From positions 1-12,545 of the forward strand of contig JAYTHY010000062.1 of the NCBI GenBank assembly GCA_043732185.1: DNA of 12,545 nt. Reading direction: 5' to 3'. The position numbers and the translations under genes were made by a program. Under the pieces are notes generated by a model. That model did not search any database, was not told where the DNA came from, and saw only the letters and a program-made list of their open reading frames with translations. This document shows positions 1-7,817 of the stretch, in pieces. The DNA is from Fibrobacteria bacterium. Lineage in GTDB: Bacteria > Fibrobacterota > Fibrobacteria > UBA11236. The stretch's first letter is position 1. Every line of letters begins with the position of its first letter.

Positions 1-1562
1 CCAACCACTCGCAGATTGAGTTCCTTTTCCATATTGAGAAGCCGGTTGGATTCCGTGCTGGCCATTTTAGCGAGCGGAATGCCCGTCATTTTGGCAACCA
101 CTTCCTGGATGACGTCTTCGTCCACCATCAGGCGCTCTTCGCGCTTTTGCTCGCGCCACTTTTTACGCATATCTTCGAGTTCAGCCTTGAGGCTTTCTTG
201 GGAGTCGCGCAGACTGGCAGCCGTTTCATAATCTTGATTCTCAACGGAGGCTTCTTTTTCCTTGATCACCGCTTCAAGCTCTAGCTCTTTGGTGCGCAAT
301 TCAGGTGGGATGGAAAGACTGGCCAAACGAACGCGGGCGCCGGCTTCGTCAATGATATCGATAGCTTTGTCTGGCATAAAGCGATCGCTGAGGTAGCGAT
401 CCGATAAGCGCACTGAGGCATCCAGCGCTTGCTCGGTATAGGTCACCTTATGATGCTGTTCATACTTAACCCGCAGGCCTCGGATAATAGCCAGTGTGTC
501 CACCAAGGAAGGCGGATCCACCACAATGGTTTGGAATCTCCGCTCCAAGGCGCCATCTTTTTCAATGTACTTGCGGTATTCATCCAAAGTGGTCGCGCCG
601 ATGCATTGGAACTCGCCGCGTGAGAGGGCGGGCTTGAAAATATTGGACGCATCCAAGGATCCTTCTGAACCACCTGCGCCCACTATGGTATGCAATTCAT
701 CGATGAAGATGATGACATTCTCATTCTTTTGCAGCTCCGTCATCAGGGACTTGAGGCGTTCCTCAAATTGACCACGGTATTTGGTGCCTGCCACAATGCT
801 ACCCATATCCAATGTGACAACGCGCTTGTTTTCCAGAATTTCCGGAATGTTGCGCTCCACTATCTTCTGGGCCAAACCTTCCACGATAGCGGTTTTGCCA
901 ACGCCGGGTTCACCGATAAGCACAGGATTGTTCTTTTTTCGACGGGAAAGTATTTGGATGACCCGTTCGATTTCCGGTCCCCGACCAATGATAGGATCCA
1001 ATTGCCCTTGGCGGGCTAGTTCCGTTAAATCGCGGCCAAAATGATCCAGAAACGGGGTCTTGGATTTTTTACGGCTTCCGGCAAACTCGCTGGTTGCAGC
1101 ACCGGCGCCCGCGGTGGCATCGCCACCACGAAGCACGCGTTCGATTTCTTCCTTCACGCGCTCGTACTCGACGCCGATGCTGGCGAGCGCATTGGCTGCT
1201 GCGGATTCATGATCCTTCATCAATGCCAAAAGCAGGTGTTCCGTACCTATATACTTATGGCTCATTGAGCGTGCTTCCTGCGCGGCAATTTCCAAAACCT
1301 TTTTTGCCCTAGGTGTAAAGGGAATCATTTGTCCAATGGTCATCATTCCCCCTGACGAGGAAATGGATTTCTCAATATTGCGGGCTAGATCATCCAGGTC
1401 GATGCCCAGATTCTTGAGTACCGCCACCGCTACCCCGTCGCCCTCGCGAATCAGTCCAAGCAGGAGATGTTCAGTTCCAACATAATCATTTCCAAGTCGC
1501 ACGGATTCCTCGCGTGCCAGTTGCATGACTTTCTTGACTCTATCCGTAAACATGCCGTTCAT
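1..1562 (-). CDS. clpC: ATP-dependent Clp protease ATP-binding subunit ClpC (5' part; continues beyond the left edge)
   Basis: Absent from the ORF track because there is no stop in the window; translated by hand from ATG 1562. It shows Clp-N repeat 1 ([37 protein letters not shown]), repeat 2 ([33 protein letters not shown]), [18 protein letters not shown] (Walker A), [21 protein letters not shown] (Walker B), [19 protein letters not shown] and a short UVR-type middle domain ([18 protein letters not shown]), which indicates ClpC rather than ClpA or ClpB. SD-like GGGGA lies 8 nt upstream, and the gene follows mcsA-mcsB. Confidence 0.96.
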
Positions 1563-1668: not shown

Positions 1669-2760
1669 TCAATTCTTAGAACTCTCCAGTGCTAATCTTA
1701 CAACCTTTGCCCTGTATCTGTCCTCATCTTCTTTCGGAAGCAACCGATTTGAACTTACCCCGAGGTGACCGGATCCAGCGGTAACTCTCAGTTCTTCCGC
1801 TATCTCGGCCAATTTTGGGTTTAATATTCCTAGATACGCACCGAGACGTAGGTAGGACCCCATCTTTAAAAGCGATGGATAGGAGAGTACTTCCGCCTGA
1901 GAAAGCCCTTGCAGGGATTCTTGAACTCGATCTTCAAGGGTTTTATGCTGTTTTTCCATGCATCGGTCCTGCAATTTTTTTTCCTGAATCAGTAGAGGTT
2001 GGACGCTTCTCATAAAGCGTGTGTAAATGGCCGGCAGGGATTCACCGGCATTTCCCCGGGATTTCAGTAGAAATAATCCCGCCACTGCGGATCCTTCCAA
2101 AAAACTAACCGGGGCAAAACCCAAACCTAAGGCTACCATACCATTCCGCGCCTGGGGCAACTGACGCGCAAGTGCATGACCAGGCAGATGGACGAGTATT
2201 TCTATTTCCAGTCCGGGCCCCAAATGATCGGGAGCGGAGGTCAAATACCCAAGGCGCTCGGACCAAGCCCAAAGCTGTTGGCTGTCGGCCGAGGCATACT
2301 CCTCGATAAAATCTTTTTCCGTCAGGCATCCAGGATACATCCGGCCGAACACCATATGTTCGACTTCATTAACCAGAACCCAACGTTTAGCGGCAGCGTC
2401 TACATTCAAATACTTGAATTCTTTTTTTCCTGGAAAGGGAACGGAGCGTTCCGGCAACAAAAGTCTTTCCCGCAACATTCGGATAACTTGCGGCGCGCAA
2501 TCGGACAGACGGAAGACATCGTAACCACCCTGTTTGATCAACAGGTTCAATGCCTTGTCGGCAATGGCGGCACAAATACTGGGAGTGGCGGAAACGGTAA
2601 ACGGGAAGCCAGCAAAATTACGGAAGACGTGCACGCGCGTGAGCACCACGAATGGATATGGGCTCGCAAGCGCTTCCCGCCGACCCGTCCAGGCCACAGG
2701 CAGGCTGGCCAATTCACGCCAATCCAAGTCCGCCGCCGAACTTTCTTGAAGCTTCCGCAT
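1669..2760 (-). CDS. mcsB: McsB-family ATP:guanido phosphotransferase (protein-arginine kinase) homolog, catalytically degenerate
   Basis: Collinear with McsB: VLTRVHVFRNFAGFPF (~SSRIRLARNL.GFPF), VLVNEVEHM (~MINEEDHL), ERLGYLTSAPDHLGPGLEIEILVHLPG (~[23 protein letters not shown]), LEDRV...SYLRLGAYLGIL and C-terminal DRYRAKVVR. It lies between mcsA and clpC. The start is uncertain: ATG 2760 or TTG 2727 (MDWRELAS...). The track start at 2844 lies deep inside mcsA. Confidence 0.85.
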   Translation of the reverse strand: MRKLQESSAADLDWRELASLPVAWTGRREALASPYPFVVLTRVHVFRNFAGFPFTVSATPSICAAIADKALNLLIKQGGYDVFRLSDCAPQVIRMLRERLLLPERSVPFPGKKEFKYLNVDAAAKRWVLVNEVEHMVFGRMYPGCLTEKDFIEEYASADSQQLWAWSERLGYLTSAPDHLGPGLEIEILVHLPGHALARQLPQARNGMVALGLGFAPVSFLEGSAVAGLFLLKSRGNAGESLPAIYTRFMRSVQPLLIQEKKLQDRCMEKQHKTLEDRVQESLQGLSQAEVLSYPSLLKMGSYLRLGAYLGILNPKLAEIAEELRVTAGSGHLGVSSNRLLPKEDEDRYRAKVVRLALESSKN

Positions 2761-3031
2761 TCTGAATGAGCAGGCGGAGTCGCGCCGCTTCGCCATAATT
2801 TTCAACCTTGAGCGCTTCGGCCAGCATGATCCGCCATCGCGCAAGATTTTCGGGATCGGATGTGGAATCCAGTTCAGGAAAGTCCGGAGTCGCCTCTGAA
2901 AACTTTAATGCATGATGCATCCAGAGCAAATCGGCCTGCAAAGCCTCGCCAAAGCTGGCATAGCAATGGGTACACCCAAGTAAGCCGCGCGTCCGGTATT
3001 CACCCAACGTAAATCCACATTGCGTGCACAC
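2714..3031 (-). CDS. mcsA: McsA-like protein (CxxC motifs plus UvrB/UvrC coiled coil), N-terminally shortened
   Basis: CTQCGFTLGEYRTRGLLGCTHCYASF matches the McsA C..CG.T...F...GR.GC..CY..F motif. C-terminal LAEALKVENYGEAARLRLLI is a UVR motif. It lies directly upstream of mcsB-clpC. Start is GTG 3031, with CTG 3046 as an alternative. Confidence 0.85.
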   Translation of the reverse strand: MCTQCGFTLGEYRTRGLLGCTHCYASFGEALQADLLWMHHALKFSEATPDFPELDSTSDPENLARWRIMLAEALKVENYGEAARLRLLIQNAEASRKFGGGLGLA

Positions 3032-3038
3032 TGAAAAA

Positions 3039-3791
3039 CTATCCAGAAAGGCCTCCGGAGGAATCCCGCTCCAGATTCAATACTCCATTTTCCATCATGT
3101 AGACTCGGTCGGCCTTTGCCGCCAAATTAAGATCATGGGTTACCACCAAAATGGCCACAGACAAACGTTTGTTCAGATCGAGAAGTTGAGAATGCAGCAG
3201 ATCCGAATTTTTGGCATCCAGATTTCCGGAAGGCTCATCGCAAAGCAAGATGCCTGGCTCATTGATAAGGGCACGGGCCAATGCGATACGCTGACGTTCG
3301 CCGCCGGAAAGTTCTGCGGGGAGATGCTTGAGACGATGATCCATGCCCACCATTCGAATCAGTTCCAACGCCCTCTCCTCATCGGCTCGGCGCAATCTTC
3401 CTGCAATCCTACTGGGCATCAGCACGTTTTCTTTGACAGTCAAGTCCGGCATGAGATGGTGGAATTGGAAAACGAAACCGATTTCCTTATTGCGGATTTG
3501 GCTGAGTTGCTTGTCCGTAAGCCCCTCCGTATCCTTGCCTTTAAAAAGCACACGGCCAGCCGTAGGTCTGTCCAGCATGCCCAAAATGTGCAGCATGGTG
3601 CTCTTACCCACACCGGATGCGCCTTTGATGGCCACAAAGTCGCCGGTGGAAATTGCAAAGTTCAGATCCCGAAAAAGTTCGATGCGCGTGCCCGTTTCCT
3701 CGAAAACCTTTTGAATGCCGGAAACGGCTAATAGCGGTGTGGTCCTTAATGAAGGCGCGTCCGGTAAAGACACGTTCAAAGCATCACTCAT
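3039..3791 (-). CDS. lolD: Lipoprotein-releasing system ABC ATP-binding protein LolD
   Basis: Walker A GASGVGKST, IRNKEIGFVFQFHHL, signature LSGGERQR, Walker B LLCDEPSGNLD and H-loop VTHD. Overlaps the upstream permease gene by 8 nt. Confidence 0.9.
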   Translation of the reverse strand: MSDALNVSLPDAPSLRTTPLLAVSGIQKVFEETGTRIELFRDLNFAISTGDFVAIKGASGVGKSTMLHILGMLDRPTAGRVLFKGKDTEGLTDKQLSQIRNKEIGFVFQFHHLMPDLTVKENVLMPSRIAGRLRRADEERALELIRMVGMDHRLKHLPAELSGGERQRIALARALINEPGILLCDEPSGNLDAKNSDLLHSQLLDLNKRLSVAILVVTHDLNLAAKADRVYMMENGVLNLERDSSGGLSG

Positions 3792-5031
3792 GTCGGATGG
3801 CCTCCACAGGATTATGCCGCGCGGCTTTCATGGCCGGAAGAATGGTAGCCAAGCCGCATAAAACATTGGTGACGATGAGCACCATCAGCACATCAGCCAA
3901 GTGCAATTCCACCGGGAGCACGGTTACAAAATAAACATCACCGGGAAGTTGGATGATACCGAATCGGCTTTGCAACCAATAACTGAATAGGCCCAGCAGG
4001 GTTCCGGCGAACGATCCGGCCAAACCGATCAGCATGCCTTCCAGCATAAAGATGCGTAGGATGGAGTTGCGCGTGGACCCCATGGCACGCAGAATGCCGA
4101 TTTCCCGAACCTTGTCGTTTACGGCCATGACTAGGGATGAAATGATATTGAACGCGGCGATGATGATGATGATGCCAAGCGCCAAACCCACCAAAACCTT
4201 TTCATAGGACATCCACTTGATCAAGGTATAGTTCTTGGCTTGCCAATCCAGGGCTCGGTACGGGAAGCCCAGGCTGTCTTCCAAACTGTTGGCGATGGAG
4301 CCGCTTCGGTAAGGATCCTGTACCCGGATTTGCAAACCCGTTACGGCGTTTTGCATATCGAAAAGATGCTGCGCCTCCGGAAGTGAAATATAGGCCAAGG
4401 TTTCGTCGAATTGATACATGCCGGATTCAAAGGTCGCTGCCACCAGAAAGACGGAAATCTTGGGTGCGAATCCGGAGGAGCCCAATTCACCGGCACCGGT
4501 AAAATCAGCCAGGAACACCTTGTCGCCAACTTCTGCGCCGAGCCGCGCTGCCAGGGCATAGCCGAGAATGATCCCCGGAAAACTTTTGCCCGTGGAGTCC
4601 ACCAAACCGTTGAATGCGTATTTGCCATGTGTTATGGTTTTGTCCAATCCAATCACACCTGGACTGGTAGCCGTATCAATTCCGTAAACGACAATACCAT
4701 CCTGGTTTTTTTTGCGCGAGATGATGGTCTTGGCCATGATAAAAGGAGATACCGCTGTTACGTCCGGCGAGTGCTTTACGATTTGCAGCAGGGAATCATA
4801 GGCAAAGACAGGTGCGTACTGGTATTTGGTGATTTCAATATGCGCGTCCTTGCCGATCAGCTGTTTTTTCACTTCATGTTCAAAACCGTTGATGGCCGAG
4901 AGGACAAAGATGAGCAGCCACGTACCCACTGTGACACCGGCCGCCGAGAACAAGGCAATAAGGCCCGTGGACAAGGTGCGGCGTTGGGCCCAGAAATACT
5001 TCCGGGCGATAAACCATTCGAAATATTTCAC
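3784..5031 (-). CDS. Lipoprotein-releasing ABC transporter permease, LolC/LolE (possibly LolF-type) family
   Basis: N-terminal FIARKY...GVTVGTWLLIFVLSAINGFE, a large periplasmic domain and a C-terminal FtsX-like domain (IAAFNIISSLVMAVNDKVREIGILRAMG...IFMLEG...PGDVYF...LPAMKAARHNPVEAIRHE). GTG start; adjacent to lolD. Confidence 0.9.
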   Translation of the reverse strand: MKYFEWFIARKYFWAQRRTLSTGLIALFSAAGVTVGTWLLIFVLSAINGFEHEVKKQLIGKDAHIEITKYQYAPVFAYDSLLQIVKHSPDVTAVSPFIMAKTIISRKKNQDGIVVYGIDTATSPGVIGLDKTITHGKYAFNGLVDSTGKSFPGIILGYALAARLGAEVGDKVFLADFTGAGELGSSGFAPKISVFLVAATFESGMYQFDETLAYISLPEAQHLFDMQNAVTGLQIRVQDPYRSGSIANSLEDSLGFPYRALDWQAKNYTLIKWMSYEKVLVGLALGIIIIIAAFNIISSLVMAVNDKVREIGILRAMGSTRNSILRIFMLEGMLIGLAGSFAGTLLGLFSYWLQSRFGIIQLPGDVYFVTVLPVELHLADVLMVLIVTNVLCGLATILPAMKAARHNPVEAIRHE

Positions 5032-5068: not shown

Positions 5069-6610
5069 TCATTCCGGTTTCATCAACGGGAACAAAAGGA
5101 CGTCCTTGATGGTTTGACTGTCGGTTAAAAGCATCACCATACGGTCGATGCCGATGCCCACACCGCCGGTGGGCGGCATGCCGTATTCCAAGGTCCGCAG
5201 AAAATCTTCGTCCAGCGGATGAGTTTCTTCCTCGCCCCCGCGACCCCGGGCCACCTGTTCTTCCAGCAGTTTGCGTTGCACCAGCGGATCGTTCAATTCG
5301 GAATAGGCATTGCCGACTTCCCAGCCATTGATATAGGGTTCAAATTGCTCTACTAGATCGGCATCCGAGCGATGGGCCTTGCACAGCGGAGTGCTTTCCT
5401 TGGGATGATCGATGATGAAAATCGGGCCTTCCAAATGGGCTTCACAGCGCGCTTCGAACAACGCTTTAATCGCCAAACCCCGACTGAAACTTCCTTTGGT
5501 TTCGGCATGGCTTTCATAAAGGGCGTCCTTCAAGGCTTCATCCGTCATGGCATCTACGTCCAGTCCACCAAAATTTTTGATGGCTTCCTTGACGGTCATG
5601 CGCGGCCACGGCGGAGTGAGATCGAATTCTTTTCCCTGATACGTGAAGCGCGCCGATCCATTGGCGGCCGTACAGGCCAACGCGTACATGGTTTCGAAAT
5701 GCGTCATCATGTCCTGGTAATCGGCAAAAGCTTGGTAAAATTCCAACAAGGTGAATTCAGGATTATGGGTTCGGTCGATGCCCTCGTTGCGGAAATCCTT
5801 GGCGAATTCGAATACACGCGGGAAGCCGCCGGTGATGCAGCGCTTGAGATACAGCTCGTTGCTGACTCTAAGGAACAGGGGAATATCCAAGGCATTGTGA
5901 TGCGTTAGGAAAGGTCTGGCGCTGGCTCCCCCATAAATCGCCTGCAATATGGGCGTTTCTACTTCCAGATAATCCTGTCCCAATAGGTACTCACGCAGGG
6001 ATTGGATGATTCGGGACCGCTTTTTGAAAGTGGCGCGCACAGTATCATTCAAAGTGAGATCGATGTAACGTTGACGATACCGGGACTCCACATCCTTGAA
6101 CTCGTCGAAAATGATCTTAACGCCATCCTCGATTTTTTCTTTGGGTATCGGCAGCGGCCGCACCGCCTTGGACAAAAGCACCACGGTTCGGGCATGCACG
6201 GTATATTCTCCGGTGCGGGTGATGAACATATAGCCCCTCACGCCGACCCAATCCCCGATATCCAATAGCTTTACCAATTCAAAGCTGGGTTCACCCACGG
6301 CGTCGCGGCCAAACATGACTTGCTGGCGTCCCATGTCATCTTTGAGATGGATGAAGGCTAATTTGCCTTTCAAGTTGTACCGGACAATCCGGCCTGCAAA
6401 GGCGATTTCAGGCGCGGGGGAAGCTGCGGGTGTAGGGGATGCTGGAGTCACGGCGGCACTGTCGACGACGGGAAGTAGCTGGTCCTTGTCGGCAAGCAAC
6501 CCGGCACTGTCATGGGTAAAGGCAAAAGCATAAGGATAGGGATTGATCCCCATCGCTTTAAGTTTCACTAGCTTGTCCAACCGGGCTTCGACTTGGTCGT
6601 TTACTTCCAT
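5069..6610 (-). CDS. lysS: Lysine--tRNA ligase, class II
   Basis: N-terminal OB-fold (GINPYP, AGRI, LDIGDWVGVRG, TRTGE), RYRQRYIDL, EVETPIL, GGASARPFLTHHNALD, motif 2 FRNEGIDRTHNPEFT, NAYSELNDP and motif 3 YGMPPTGGVGIGIDRMVMLLT. Confidence 0.98.
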   Translation of the reverse strand: MEVNDQVEARLDKLVKLKAMGINPYPYAFAFTHDSAGLLADKDQLLPVVDSAAVTPASPTPAASPAPEIAFAGRIVRYNLKGKLAFIHLKDDMGRQQVMFGRDAVGEPSFELVKLLDIGDWVGVRGYMFITRTGEYTVHARTVVLLSKAVRPLPIPKEKIEDGVKIIFDEFKDVESRYRQRYIDLTLNDTVRATFKKRSRIIQSLREYLLGQDYLEVETPILQAIYGGASARPFLTHHNALDIPLFLRVSNELYLKRCITGGFPRVFEFAKDFRNEGIDRTHNPEFTLLEFYQAFADYQDMMTHFETMYALACTAANGSARFTYQGKEFDLTPPWPRMTVKEAIKNFGGLDVDAMTDEALKDALYESHAETKGSFSRGLAIKALFEARCEAHLEGPIFIIDHPKESTPLCKAHRSDADLVEQFEPYINGWEVGNAYSELNDPLVQRKLLEEQVARGRGGEEETHPLDEDFLRTLEYGMPPTGGVGIGIDRMVMLLTDSQTIKDVLLFPLMKPE

Positions 6611-6647: not shown

Positions 6648-7743
6648 TTACTTTTGTTGCCGCTCTGCATCGGCGGCTAACAGATACGCGTTGATAAACC
6701 CGTCGATATTGCCGTTTAAGACGCTATCGGCATCCGTATTTTCAAAATCCGTGCGCGCGTCCTTGACCATTTGATACGGCTGCAAAACATACGAACGGAT
6801 TTGACTGCCCCATTCGATTTTGAGTTTGGAAGCCGCCTTGGCCTCTTTTTTGGCCTCTTCATCGTCGCGGAATTTCTGGTACACTCTGGCGCGCAGCATT
6901 TTGATAGCGCTGGCACGGTTCTTATGTTGGCTGCGCTCATTTTGACAGGACACGACAATGCCGGTCGGCAAATGCGTCATGCGTACGGCGGAGTCCGTTT
7001 TGTTGATATGCTGTCCGCCCGCGCCGCCGGCTCGGAAGGTGTCGACTTTGATATCCTTCTCGTCTAGGTCGAATTCCACTTCTTCGACTTCCGGATACAG
7101 GTAAACGGCGGCGAAGGATGTGTGCCGCCTAGCGTTGGCGTCGAAAGGAGAGATACGCACCAGTCGATGCACGCCTATTTCGGATCGAAGGTATCCAAAA
7201 GCATATTCGCTTTGCACTTCAATCGTGGCGCTTTTGATACCCGCTTCCTCTCCAGGTTGCTCATCCAGGATTTCGTATTTGAAACCCTTTTTCTGCAGCC
7301 AGTAGACGTACATGCGCAGTAGCATACGGGCCCAATCCTGCGACTCCGTACCCCCGGCGCCGGGATGGATACTCAGGATGGCGGGCTTTTCATCATCCTC
7401 ACCGGAGAGCATTTTTTTGAGCTCCAGCTCGCGGACTTTAACCTCTAATCCAACTACGGATTCTTTGGCTTCCTGCAACGAGGCTGCATCTTTGTCCTCC
7501 TCCGCCATGGTGGCGAGCAATTCAAGCTCGTCCGCCTGGGTTTGCAAGGATTTCCACTGATCCAGCCACCACTGGTTGGTTTTGATTTTCTTCTGTACGA
7601 TTTGGGCTTTGGCGATGTCGGACCAGAAACCGGGTTCCGAAGCGGTGCGTTCGAGAAGGGCTACTTCTTCTTCTTTATGAGCGAGGTCAAAGATACCCCC
7701 ATAGGCGTTCTACCCGGGCCTTTAAATTATTGATCTCGTCCAT
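6648..7743 (-). CDS. prfB: Peptide chain release factor 2, translated through a programmed +1 frameshift
   Basis: ATG 7743 gives MDEINNLKARVERLWGYL followed by TGA. The +1 frame continues DLAHKEEEVALLERTASEPGFWSD... into the tracked 299-aa ORF, which has GAGGTESQDW, HRLVRISPFD (RF2 SPF motif), GGQHINKTDSAVR and WGSQIRSYV. SD-like AAGGGG lies upstream. Confidence 0.97.
7686..7701 (-). promoter_or_regulatory. prfB +1 frameshift cassette (internal SD plus CTT TGA C)
   Basis: The minus strand reads TGGGGG TAT CTT TGA C, one base from the canonical AGGGGG TAT CTT TGA C. The TGA is at 7689-7687, after codon 18. Confidence 0.95.
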
Positions 7744-7817
7744 GGTAGAGCCCCTTGAATGACGGCCTTAAAGGTAGTCAAAAGCCAGGGGAAATTCACG
7801 ATACCGGGCCCCTTGGG

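Follow-up and report, generated by a model that had tools for sequence, protein, structure and literature searches.

We analysed a 12,545-nt stretch of DNA (the window) from the metagenome-assembled genome (MAG) of a Fibrobacteria bacterium (phylum Fibrobacterota), contig JAYTHY010000062.1; all positions are given in forward-strand numbering. On its minus strand the window carries a gene for a homologue of McsB, to our knowledge the only enzyme known to write the phospho-arginine tag that marks bacterial proteins for degradation. Genes for a short McsA-like protein and for ClpC lie on either side of it. By descent the gene encodes an McsB-derived, probable pseudokinase, which on sequence stands outside the functional kinase family. 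Its coding sequence and the segments that matter for the argument are as follows.

1669..2760, minus strand: coding sequence of the McsB-derived predicted pseudokinase, 363 amino acids from the ATG at 2760, stop codon at 1669-1671
2617..2640, minus strand: TRVHVFRN, canonically S-R-x-R-L-A-R-N; the second Arg is His44, while R42 and R47 are kept
2413..2436, minus strand: FPGKKEFK loop, into which two residues (P110, G111) are inserted; the 28-member core clade described below has K112 and K116 throughout
2350..2370, minus strand: NEVEHMV, canonically N-E-E-D-H-x-R; catalytic Glu replaced by Val133, Asp by Glu134 and the phosphate-binding Arg by Val137
2206..2241, minus strand: TSAPDHLGPGLE, canonically T-[AS]-C-P-T-N-x-G-T-G-L-R; Cys167 replaced by Ala176 (2233-2235), Thr by Pro182 and Arg176 by Glu185
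2089..2118, minus strand: FAPVSFLEGS (residues 215-224), former lid loop R-G-x-Y-G-E-G-S; Arg207 replaced by Ala216
1711..1725, minus strand: EDRYR (residues 346-350), former phospho-arginine receptor; R337 replaced by Glu346, D338 and R341 kept as D347 and R350; the further receptor residue S285 is Tyr294

The minus-strand open reading frame runs without interruption through 1669..2844, with 391 codons from a TTG and 363 from the ATG at 2760. The true start is probably the TTG at 2727, giving a protein of 352 amino acids, because homologues start at an aligned M/L-x-W-[PR]-[ED]-L-A and because residues 1-9 of the ATG form, which are disordered in the AlphaFold2 model, have predicted local distance difference test (pLDDT) values below 50. 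A preliminary description of this DNA had reported an uninterrupted frame collinear with McsB, and both the reading frame and alignments to McsB sequences in the PDB bear this out. The motif replacements that it listed are all found in the sequence where it placed them. For one of them, EKHL to ERLL, the new motif is present (residues 98-101) but the loss of the His is not diagnostic, since catalytically intact McsBs have H, R, N or Q there.

We found that the protein is recognisably McsB along almost its whole length. HMMER alignment to PDB sequences matched query residues 37-358 to Bacillus subtilis McsB (8wtb/6tv6) with an E-value of 1e-20, and Geobacillus stearothermophilus McsB (6fh1) was matched at 1e-19. 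The Pfam family ATP-gua_Ptrans (PF00217) was hit with 35.9 bits against a gathering score of 22.4, over profile positions 14-202 of 203, which on sequence places the protein in the ATP:guanido phosphotransferase superfamily, by descent only. An AlphaFold2 model built from 148 aligned sequences had a mean pLDDT of 93.2 and a predicted template-modelling (TM) score (pTM) of 0.91. The best PDB matches of the model in Foldseek were McsBs (6tv6 with TM scores of 0.81-0.84 and 6fh1 with 0.83, over about 360 columns), followed by phosphagen kinases at about 0.5. The model thus predicts that the two-domain fold of McsB is retained, dimerisation domain included.

The protein shares the phosphotransferase and dimerisation domains, as well as the neighbours mcsA (upstream) and clpC (downstream), with the B. 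subtilis and G. stearothermophilus McsBs (6TV6, 6FH1-3, 8WTB/C; NF053707, NF002194). In contrast, its identity to them is only 22-24% and it falls far under the NCBIfam equivalog cut-offs, scoring 108 bits against 385 on NF002194 and 91 bits against 500 on NF053707. As a control, four canonical Fibrobacterota McsBs scored 344-421 bits on NF002194, three of them above the cut-off, and 183-227 bits on the Pfam profile, versus 36 for the window protein. The phosphagen kinases of PF00217 (arginine and creatine kinase) are alike in the fold of the catalytic domain. The window protein differs from them in having no N-terminal substrate-specificity domain, like all McsBs, and in having no counterparts of their phosphate-binding residues R126, R229 and R280, as these are numbered in the portion of PMC12467219 used here.

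The register of the active-site comparison was set by published B. subtilis McsB residue numbers, namely C167 (from the relevant section of PMC11046695) and R190, R194 and R337/D338 (from that of PMC8370763). In this register R29, R31 and R34 of B. subtilis McsB correspond to R42, H44 and R47 of the window protein, N119-E120-E121-D122-H123-I124-R125 to N131-E132-V133-E134-H135-M136-V137, and C167, R176 and R207 to A176, E185 and A216. R31, the second Arg of S-R-x-R-L-A-R-N, is equivalent to R126 of arginine kinase. The residues were followed through an alignment of 172 homologues, 93 rows of which are fully canonical at each of six diagnostic positions. All 93 canonical proteins have Arg at position 44, where the degenerate clade to which the window protein belongs has L, S, H or Q. 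Where all 93 have the second Glu of NEEDH, 27 of the 28 core-clade proteins have Val, and the catalytic Cys column (Cys in 93/93) holds D, N, A or H in the degenerate clade, with A, D or N in the core clade. The lid loop varies within the clade in both length and sequence. Only one member of the Arg cluster that contacts the ATP phosphates (R29, R31, R125, R176, R207) is retained, as R42; the others have become H44, V137, E185 and A216. More broadly, 66 positions are at least 85% conserved among the 93 canonical McsBs, and the core clade has kept 33 of these and changed the other 33. We take the second Glu of NEED to be the catalytic base. The NEEDH motif and C167 are described as the catalytic site of McsB in the cited part of PMC11046695. 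With the catalytic Glu, the Cys and four phosphate-binding Arg residues gone, the sequence argues that the kinase chemistry has very probably been lost.

The phospho-arginine receptor, which according to PMC8370763 includes R337, R341, S285 and D338, is altered as well, and Glu346 at the R337 position is invariant in the core clade. R337 is not a strict family feature, being present in just 70 of the 93 catalytically intact McsBs and missing from 8 of 12 canonical Fibrobacterota loci, so its replacement is weaker evidence than it appears. The eight catalytically intact Fibrobacterota McsBs with no R337 equivalent are those of L017-L021 and L024-L026; judging by these sequences, allosteric sensing of phospho-arginine may not be universal even in working McsBs.

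We next consider where such proteins occur. A word-indexed search returned 32 proteins at E <=1e-5, 29 of them at 44-100% identity and three at 22-25%; an exhaustive search returned 1864 proteins at E <=1e-3, only 15 of which reached <=1e-30. All 12 genome loci recovered are from MAGs titled Fibrobacterota, Fibrobacteria or Fibrobacteres. When 296 Fibrobacterota genomes were scanned with a profile of the clade, 120 gave a match, among them 30 of 31 from the window's own family (f1) and 5 of 6 from family f2; in the large family f6 none of 151 did. These tallies include one genome flagged as unpublished (G254), whose sequence was itself left out of the analysis. No second PF00217 gene was found in the window's own genome, which is 100% complete.

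The transcription order lysS-lolCE-lolD-mcsA-mcsB-clpC is shared by all 12 close loci to the extent that their contigs cover it, with ClpC seen in 11 of them (the L007 contig stops before it). This arrangement, lysS included, also occurs in loci from 17 further families or genera across Fibrobacterota. Twelve loci from 11 families (f9, f10, f11, f12, f13 with two loci, and f16-f21) have intact kinase motifs, that is S-R-x-R-L-A-R-N, NEEDHxR, C-P-T-N-x-G-T-G-x-R and R-G-F-x-G-E. Compared with the window, these canonical McsA-McsB pairs (L016-L021, L024-L029) lie in the same cluster, next to a ClpC with an N-domain of 82-85% identity, but combine intact motifs with a full-length McsA that has the N-terminal domain Z1. 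Four loci of f1 and f2 are degenerate, each differently (GEVEH, RSGEM, NMKEH and NAGES), and the McsBs of f8, f14 and f15 are partly degenerate. The f8 protein (L014, genome G281) keeps the Arg cluster and G-T-G-x-R, has LDGDH and Ser where the catalytic Glu and Cys would be, and sits in a 661-codon open frame; the f14 protein (L022) reads NDGNH and has no Cys; the f15 protein (L023) keeps the Cys and has no G-T-G-L-R arginine. From their sequences these three may represent independent or intermediate stages of loss. In one f6 genome (G089, locus L035 at G089:C22, about 1331-1501) lolD is followed by clpC after 170 bp, mcsA and mcsB having been deleted; the ClpC of this genome is 72-73% identical.

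In a FastTree phylogeny the degenerate proteins and the four f1/f2 loci formed one group of 51 rows, on a branch with Shimodaira-Hasegawa-like support of 100, and the canonical Fibrobacterota loci fell among the canonical McsBs. The tree was a quick, unrooted one of 118 rows with the canonical set randomly thinned to 28 of 89; rows shorter than 300 or longer than 450-460 amino acids were left out, and long-branch warnings were raised for rows outside the degenerate clade. The shared synteny and the single degenerate clade point to one loss of the kinase motifs, which befell the orthologue in the ancestor of the window's order. As far as sequence and gene order can tell, the gene is a direct descendant (orthologue) of canonical McsB and originated in situ. 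The preliminary description had proposed to check whether the substitutions are clade-wide among syntenic orthologues, which they are. Non-canonical McsBs are also scattered outside the Fibrobacterota clade in the 172-homologue alignment and in the tree, so that loss of McsB kinase motifs seems, from these sequences, to be recurrent. The gene ctsR was absent from the window's own genome, as from all five genomes checked; as three of these have a canonical McsB and it is missing there equally, its absence is uninformative. Low-molecular-weight phosphatase was too widespread to inform.

Selection on the gene was assessed as the ratio of nonsynonymous to synonymous divergence (dN/dS, omega) by the Nei-Gojobori method (NG86). 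For the closest pair, the window and L002 (dS about 0.30), omega was 0.13 for the McsB-like gene, 0.06 for the McsA-like gene, 0.075 for LolD, 0.033 for LolCE, 0.014 for LysS and 0.00 for ClpC (109 codons). Across the remaining 45 McsB-like pairs whose dS stayed under 1.6, omega was 0.18-0.50, values that are inflated because synonymous distances are near saturation. None of the 13 sequences compared has a break in the frame. The gene is thus constrained, yet evolves several times faster than its neighbours; ClpC is 93-100% identical across the clade loci, and 93-96% where the McsB-like proteins are 44-52% identical. The preliminary description had summarised the protein as fold kept and chemistry lost, and had named dN/dS below 1 as a test. 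The purifying selection seen in the closest pair agrees with that summary, as do the model's pLDDT and TM scores and the clade-wide substitutions. Recent decay, which it had named as the refuting alternative, was ruled out: intact-motif relatives occur only in other families of the phylum, and the members of the degenerate clade come from two families and have diverged almost to saturation at synonymous sites. A separate observation concerns G262:C14:19046-20098, from the window's family, where a TGA lies within the McsB-like match, perhaps because the gene is a pseudogene or the assembly is wrong at this point.

The cluster around the gene comprises the following features.

2714..3031, minus strand: short McsA-like protein, 105 amino acids, GTG start, with a Z2-type zinc knuckle (C2, C5, C20, C23) and a UVR-like coiled coil
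3..1562, minus strand: ClpC, first 520 residues (Pfam Clp_N twice, AAA, AAA_lid_9, UVR; N-domain, D1 and M-domain); the window end cuts the gene
3039-3791, minus strand: lolD-like ABC ATPase (Pfam ABC_tran)
3784-5031, minus strand: lolC/E-like permease (Pfam FtsX, MacB_PCD)
5069-6610, minus strand: lysS, first of the cluster in transcription order

The McsA-like protein matched the NCBIfam McsA model with 1.7e-7 over profile positions 80-172 of 182, scoring 31 bits on NF053706 against a cut-off of 210, and its profile matched B. subtilis McsA (8wtb_B) with 8.4e-8 over residues 83-177 of 187, that is Z2, L3 and the coiled coil. Like B. subtilis McsA (8WTB chain B), it has the Z2 knuckle with four Cys, which are invariant in 13 of 13 sequences, and the C-terminal coiled coil. 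Unlike B. subtilis McsA, it lacks the entire N-terminal Z1 part of about 80 residues. The truncation follows the state of McsB: in the 12 loci with a canonical McsB, McsA is 158-188 amino acids long and carries Z1 (a second CxxC...CxxC domain), and the McsAs of the window, L030-L033 and L015 have 96-126 amino acids and no Z1. PMC11046695 assigns the binding of the McsB kinase domain to Z2-L3, and additional activation of the kinase, through oligomer reassembly, to Z1 and the coiled coil. Retention of the binding domain with loss of the activating Z1 is what would be expected if kinase activity had become irrelevant and the complex had not. On the McsB side the McsA-contact residues F41, T165, S166 and P168 of B. 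subtilis are conserved as F54, T174, S175 and P177; the remaining McsA-contact residues of the McsB crystal structure are not conserved in the window protein. A prediction of the complex of short McsA, McsB-like protein and ClpC N-domain scored 0.00 in two runs made without controls, and is no evidence either way.

The McsA-like stop codon (2714-2716) lies inside the McsB-like reading frame, with an overlap of 47 nt for the ATG start or 14 nt for the TTG at 2727, which suggests translational coupling. The junctions from lolCE to mcsB are overlapping or near-touching (lolD, mcsA and mcsB with overlaps or 7-nt gaps), and 106 nt separate the McsB-like stop from clpC. A consensus scan called no terminator-like site on the minus strand in this last gap; the scan gave nothing useful for promoters or terminators, and its consensus may not apply to this phylum. 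We know of no functional link between lipoprotein export and a McsAB-ClpC module. The adjoining Lol lipoprotein-export genes and the Fibrobacterota origin of the MAG fit the earlier statement that the host is a diderm.

We propose that phosphotransfer chemistry disappeared in the common ancestor of one order of Fibrobacterota and that a folded pseudokinase has been retained since. It would still bind the short McsA with its Z2 and coiled coil, and the pair would assist ClpC as a cofactor without catalytic activity, be it adaptor or regulator, with no phospho-arginine tag being made. The role as a ClpC adaptor is plausible from the conserved adjacency to clpC; for the proposal as a whole, a McsB-descended pseudokinase with a short McsA as non-catalytic partner of ClpC, we judge the chances slightly better than even. 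Several observations weigh against it. At eleven of the 33 changed positions a new residue has become fixed (86% or more), and the clade has gained basic residues, of which R97, K112 and K116 are invariant and R199, R205 and R235 nearly so. Within the clade the ClpC N-domain is 99% identical, its identity to that of relatives whose McsB works is 82-89%, and the GTEH motifs in both ClpC repeats, presumably its phospho-arginine pockets, are invariant in 20 of 20, so that nothing in ClpC marks the change in McsB. Nor was co-variation seen between this N-domain and McsB-like proteins of 44-52% identity, and ClpC persists in the sister family f6 in the absence of mcsAB. Pseudoenzymes sometimes retain activity via other residues. 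B. subtilis McsB, moreover, reportedly depends on its kinase activity for its action on ClpC. The pertinent passage of PMC9604228 is consistent with this, and a dead McsB would then need a new binding mode. As the same passage describes arginine phosphorylation in mycobacteria, with no known McsB homologue there, loss of McsB chemistry does not prove a cell free of phospho-arginine.

One rival view is that enzymatic activity persists in a rewired active site, whose clade-specific residues replace the lost ones and support phosphotransfer or other chemistry on protein substrates. Former active-site positions have indeed been fixed to new residues instead of drifting, at fractions of 1.00 for S103P, D134E and T182P, 0.96 for E133V and Q139G, and 0.93 for S187E, G217P and Q235R. 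To these come the new, (nearly) invariant basic residues, the insertion at positions 110-111 of the FPGKKxFK loop, which is gapped in 92 of the 93 canonical sequences, and an omega well under 1. We nevertheless consider a rewired enzyme unlikely. At the phosphate-Arg positions 44, 185 and 216 the residue drifts, with the commonest one at 0.46-0.54, and the length of the lid loop is variable. Taken together, the changed positions show no more conservation than background, the observed mean being equalled or exceeded by 1325 of 10000 random sets. In the same lineages, moreover, McsA has lost its kinase-activating Z1. A slowly decaying, functionless relic would be in keeping with evolution several times faster than that of the neighbours (omega 0.13 versus 0.00-0.075 for ClpC, LysS, LolCE, LolD and McsA), with deletion in the sister family and with the TGA inside the match in G262. 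This we hold to be very improbable, given the frame open in 13 of 13, the omega of 0.13-0.50 over near-saturated synonymous distances, the presence of the gene in 35 of the 37 genomes of two families, the 59 positions invariant among 28 proteins that are 44-93% identical, and the confident model.

A non-catalytic role unconnected with ClpC, for instance in association with the upstream genes of Lol lipoprotein export, would make the adjacency to clpC a matter of inherited order. The tight packing of lolD, mcsA and mcsB against 106 nt to clpC would suit such a role, as would a ClpC N-domain that does not co-vary with the fast-evolving McsB-like protein, and so would the retention of ClpC, and of lolD-clpC adjacency, after deletion of mcsAB. 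Against it stands the order mcsA-mcsB-clpC, kept at every locus that the contig reaches, together with the missing terminator-like site between mcsB and clpC, weak evidence as it comes from a consensus scan. ClpC and its substrates are moreover the only partners of McsA and McsB named in the sections cited of PMC8370763 and PMC11046695. On balance we regard a role apart from ClpC as improbable. We also give little credence to a more far-reaching idea, in which the groove has been rebuilt (NEVEH, a Gly-Pro-Gly turn, the FPGKKxFK loop, acidic residues at Cys167/Ser) to bind unmodified arginine-rich or unfolded segments or a new small ligand, with McsA(Z2)-pseudo-McsB delivering ClpC clients that bear no phospho-arginine, or with new enzyme chemistry. 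If such delivery took place, the phospho-arginine degron system would have been succeeded by one that does without phosphorylation.

A kinase-independent role of McsB with ClpC is still debated. Our search of the literature on McsB pseudokinases, McsB in Fibrobacter and McsB-like homologues or orthologues found no degenerate McsB described. The chlamydial McsAB is handled as a putative kinase in the cited parts of PMC10128030 and PMC5177608, and the section of PMC11046695 on Gram-negative McsB homologues has their activity as never identified. What is new here is the series of intact, degenerate and deleted loci in one phylum and the matching truncation of McsA. One gene cluster thus offers, as a natural series, an intact McsAB, a McsB that appears dead with a McsA devoid of the activating domain, and deletion of both genes; these are matched proteins for asking what McsA-McsB does for ClpC beyond phosphorylation. 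'Protein arginine kinase' annotations in Gram-negative genomes may accordingly not denote kinases.

Outside the cluster, we found a programmed +1 frameshift site of release factor 2 (RF2), GGGGG TAT CTT TGA C, at 7686-7692 on the minus strand, upstream of a 299-codon RF2 open reading frame. The gene prfB (about 6648-7750, minus strand) is thus split over two frames, like in most bacteria.

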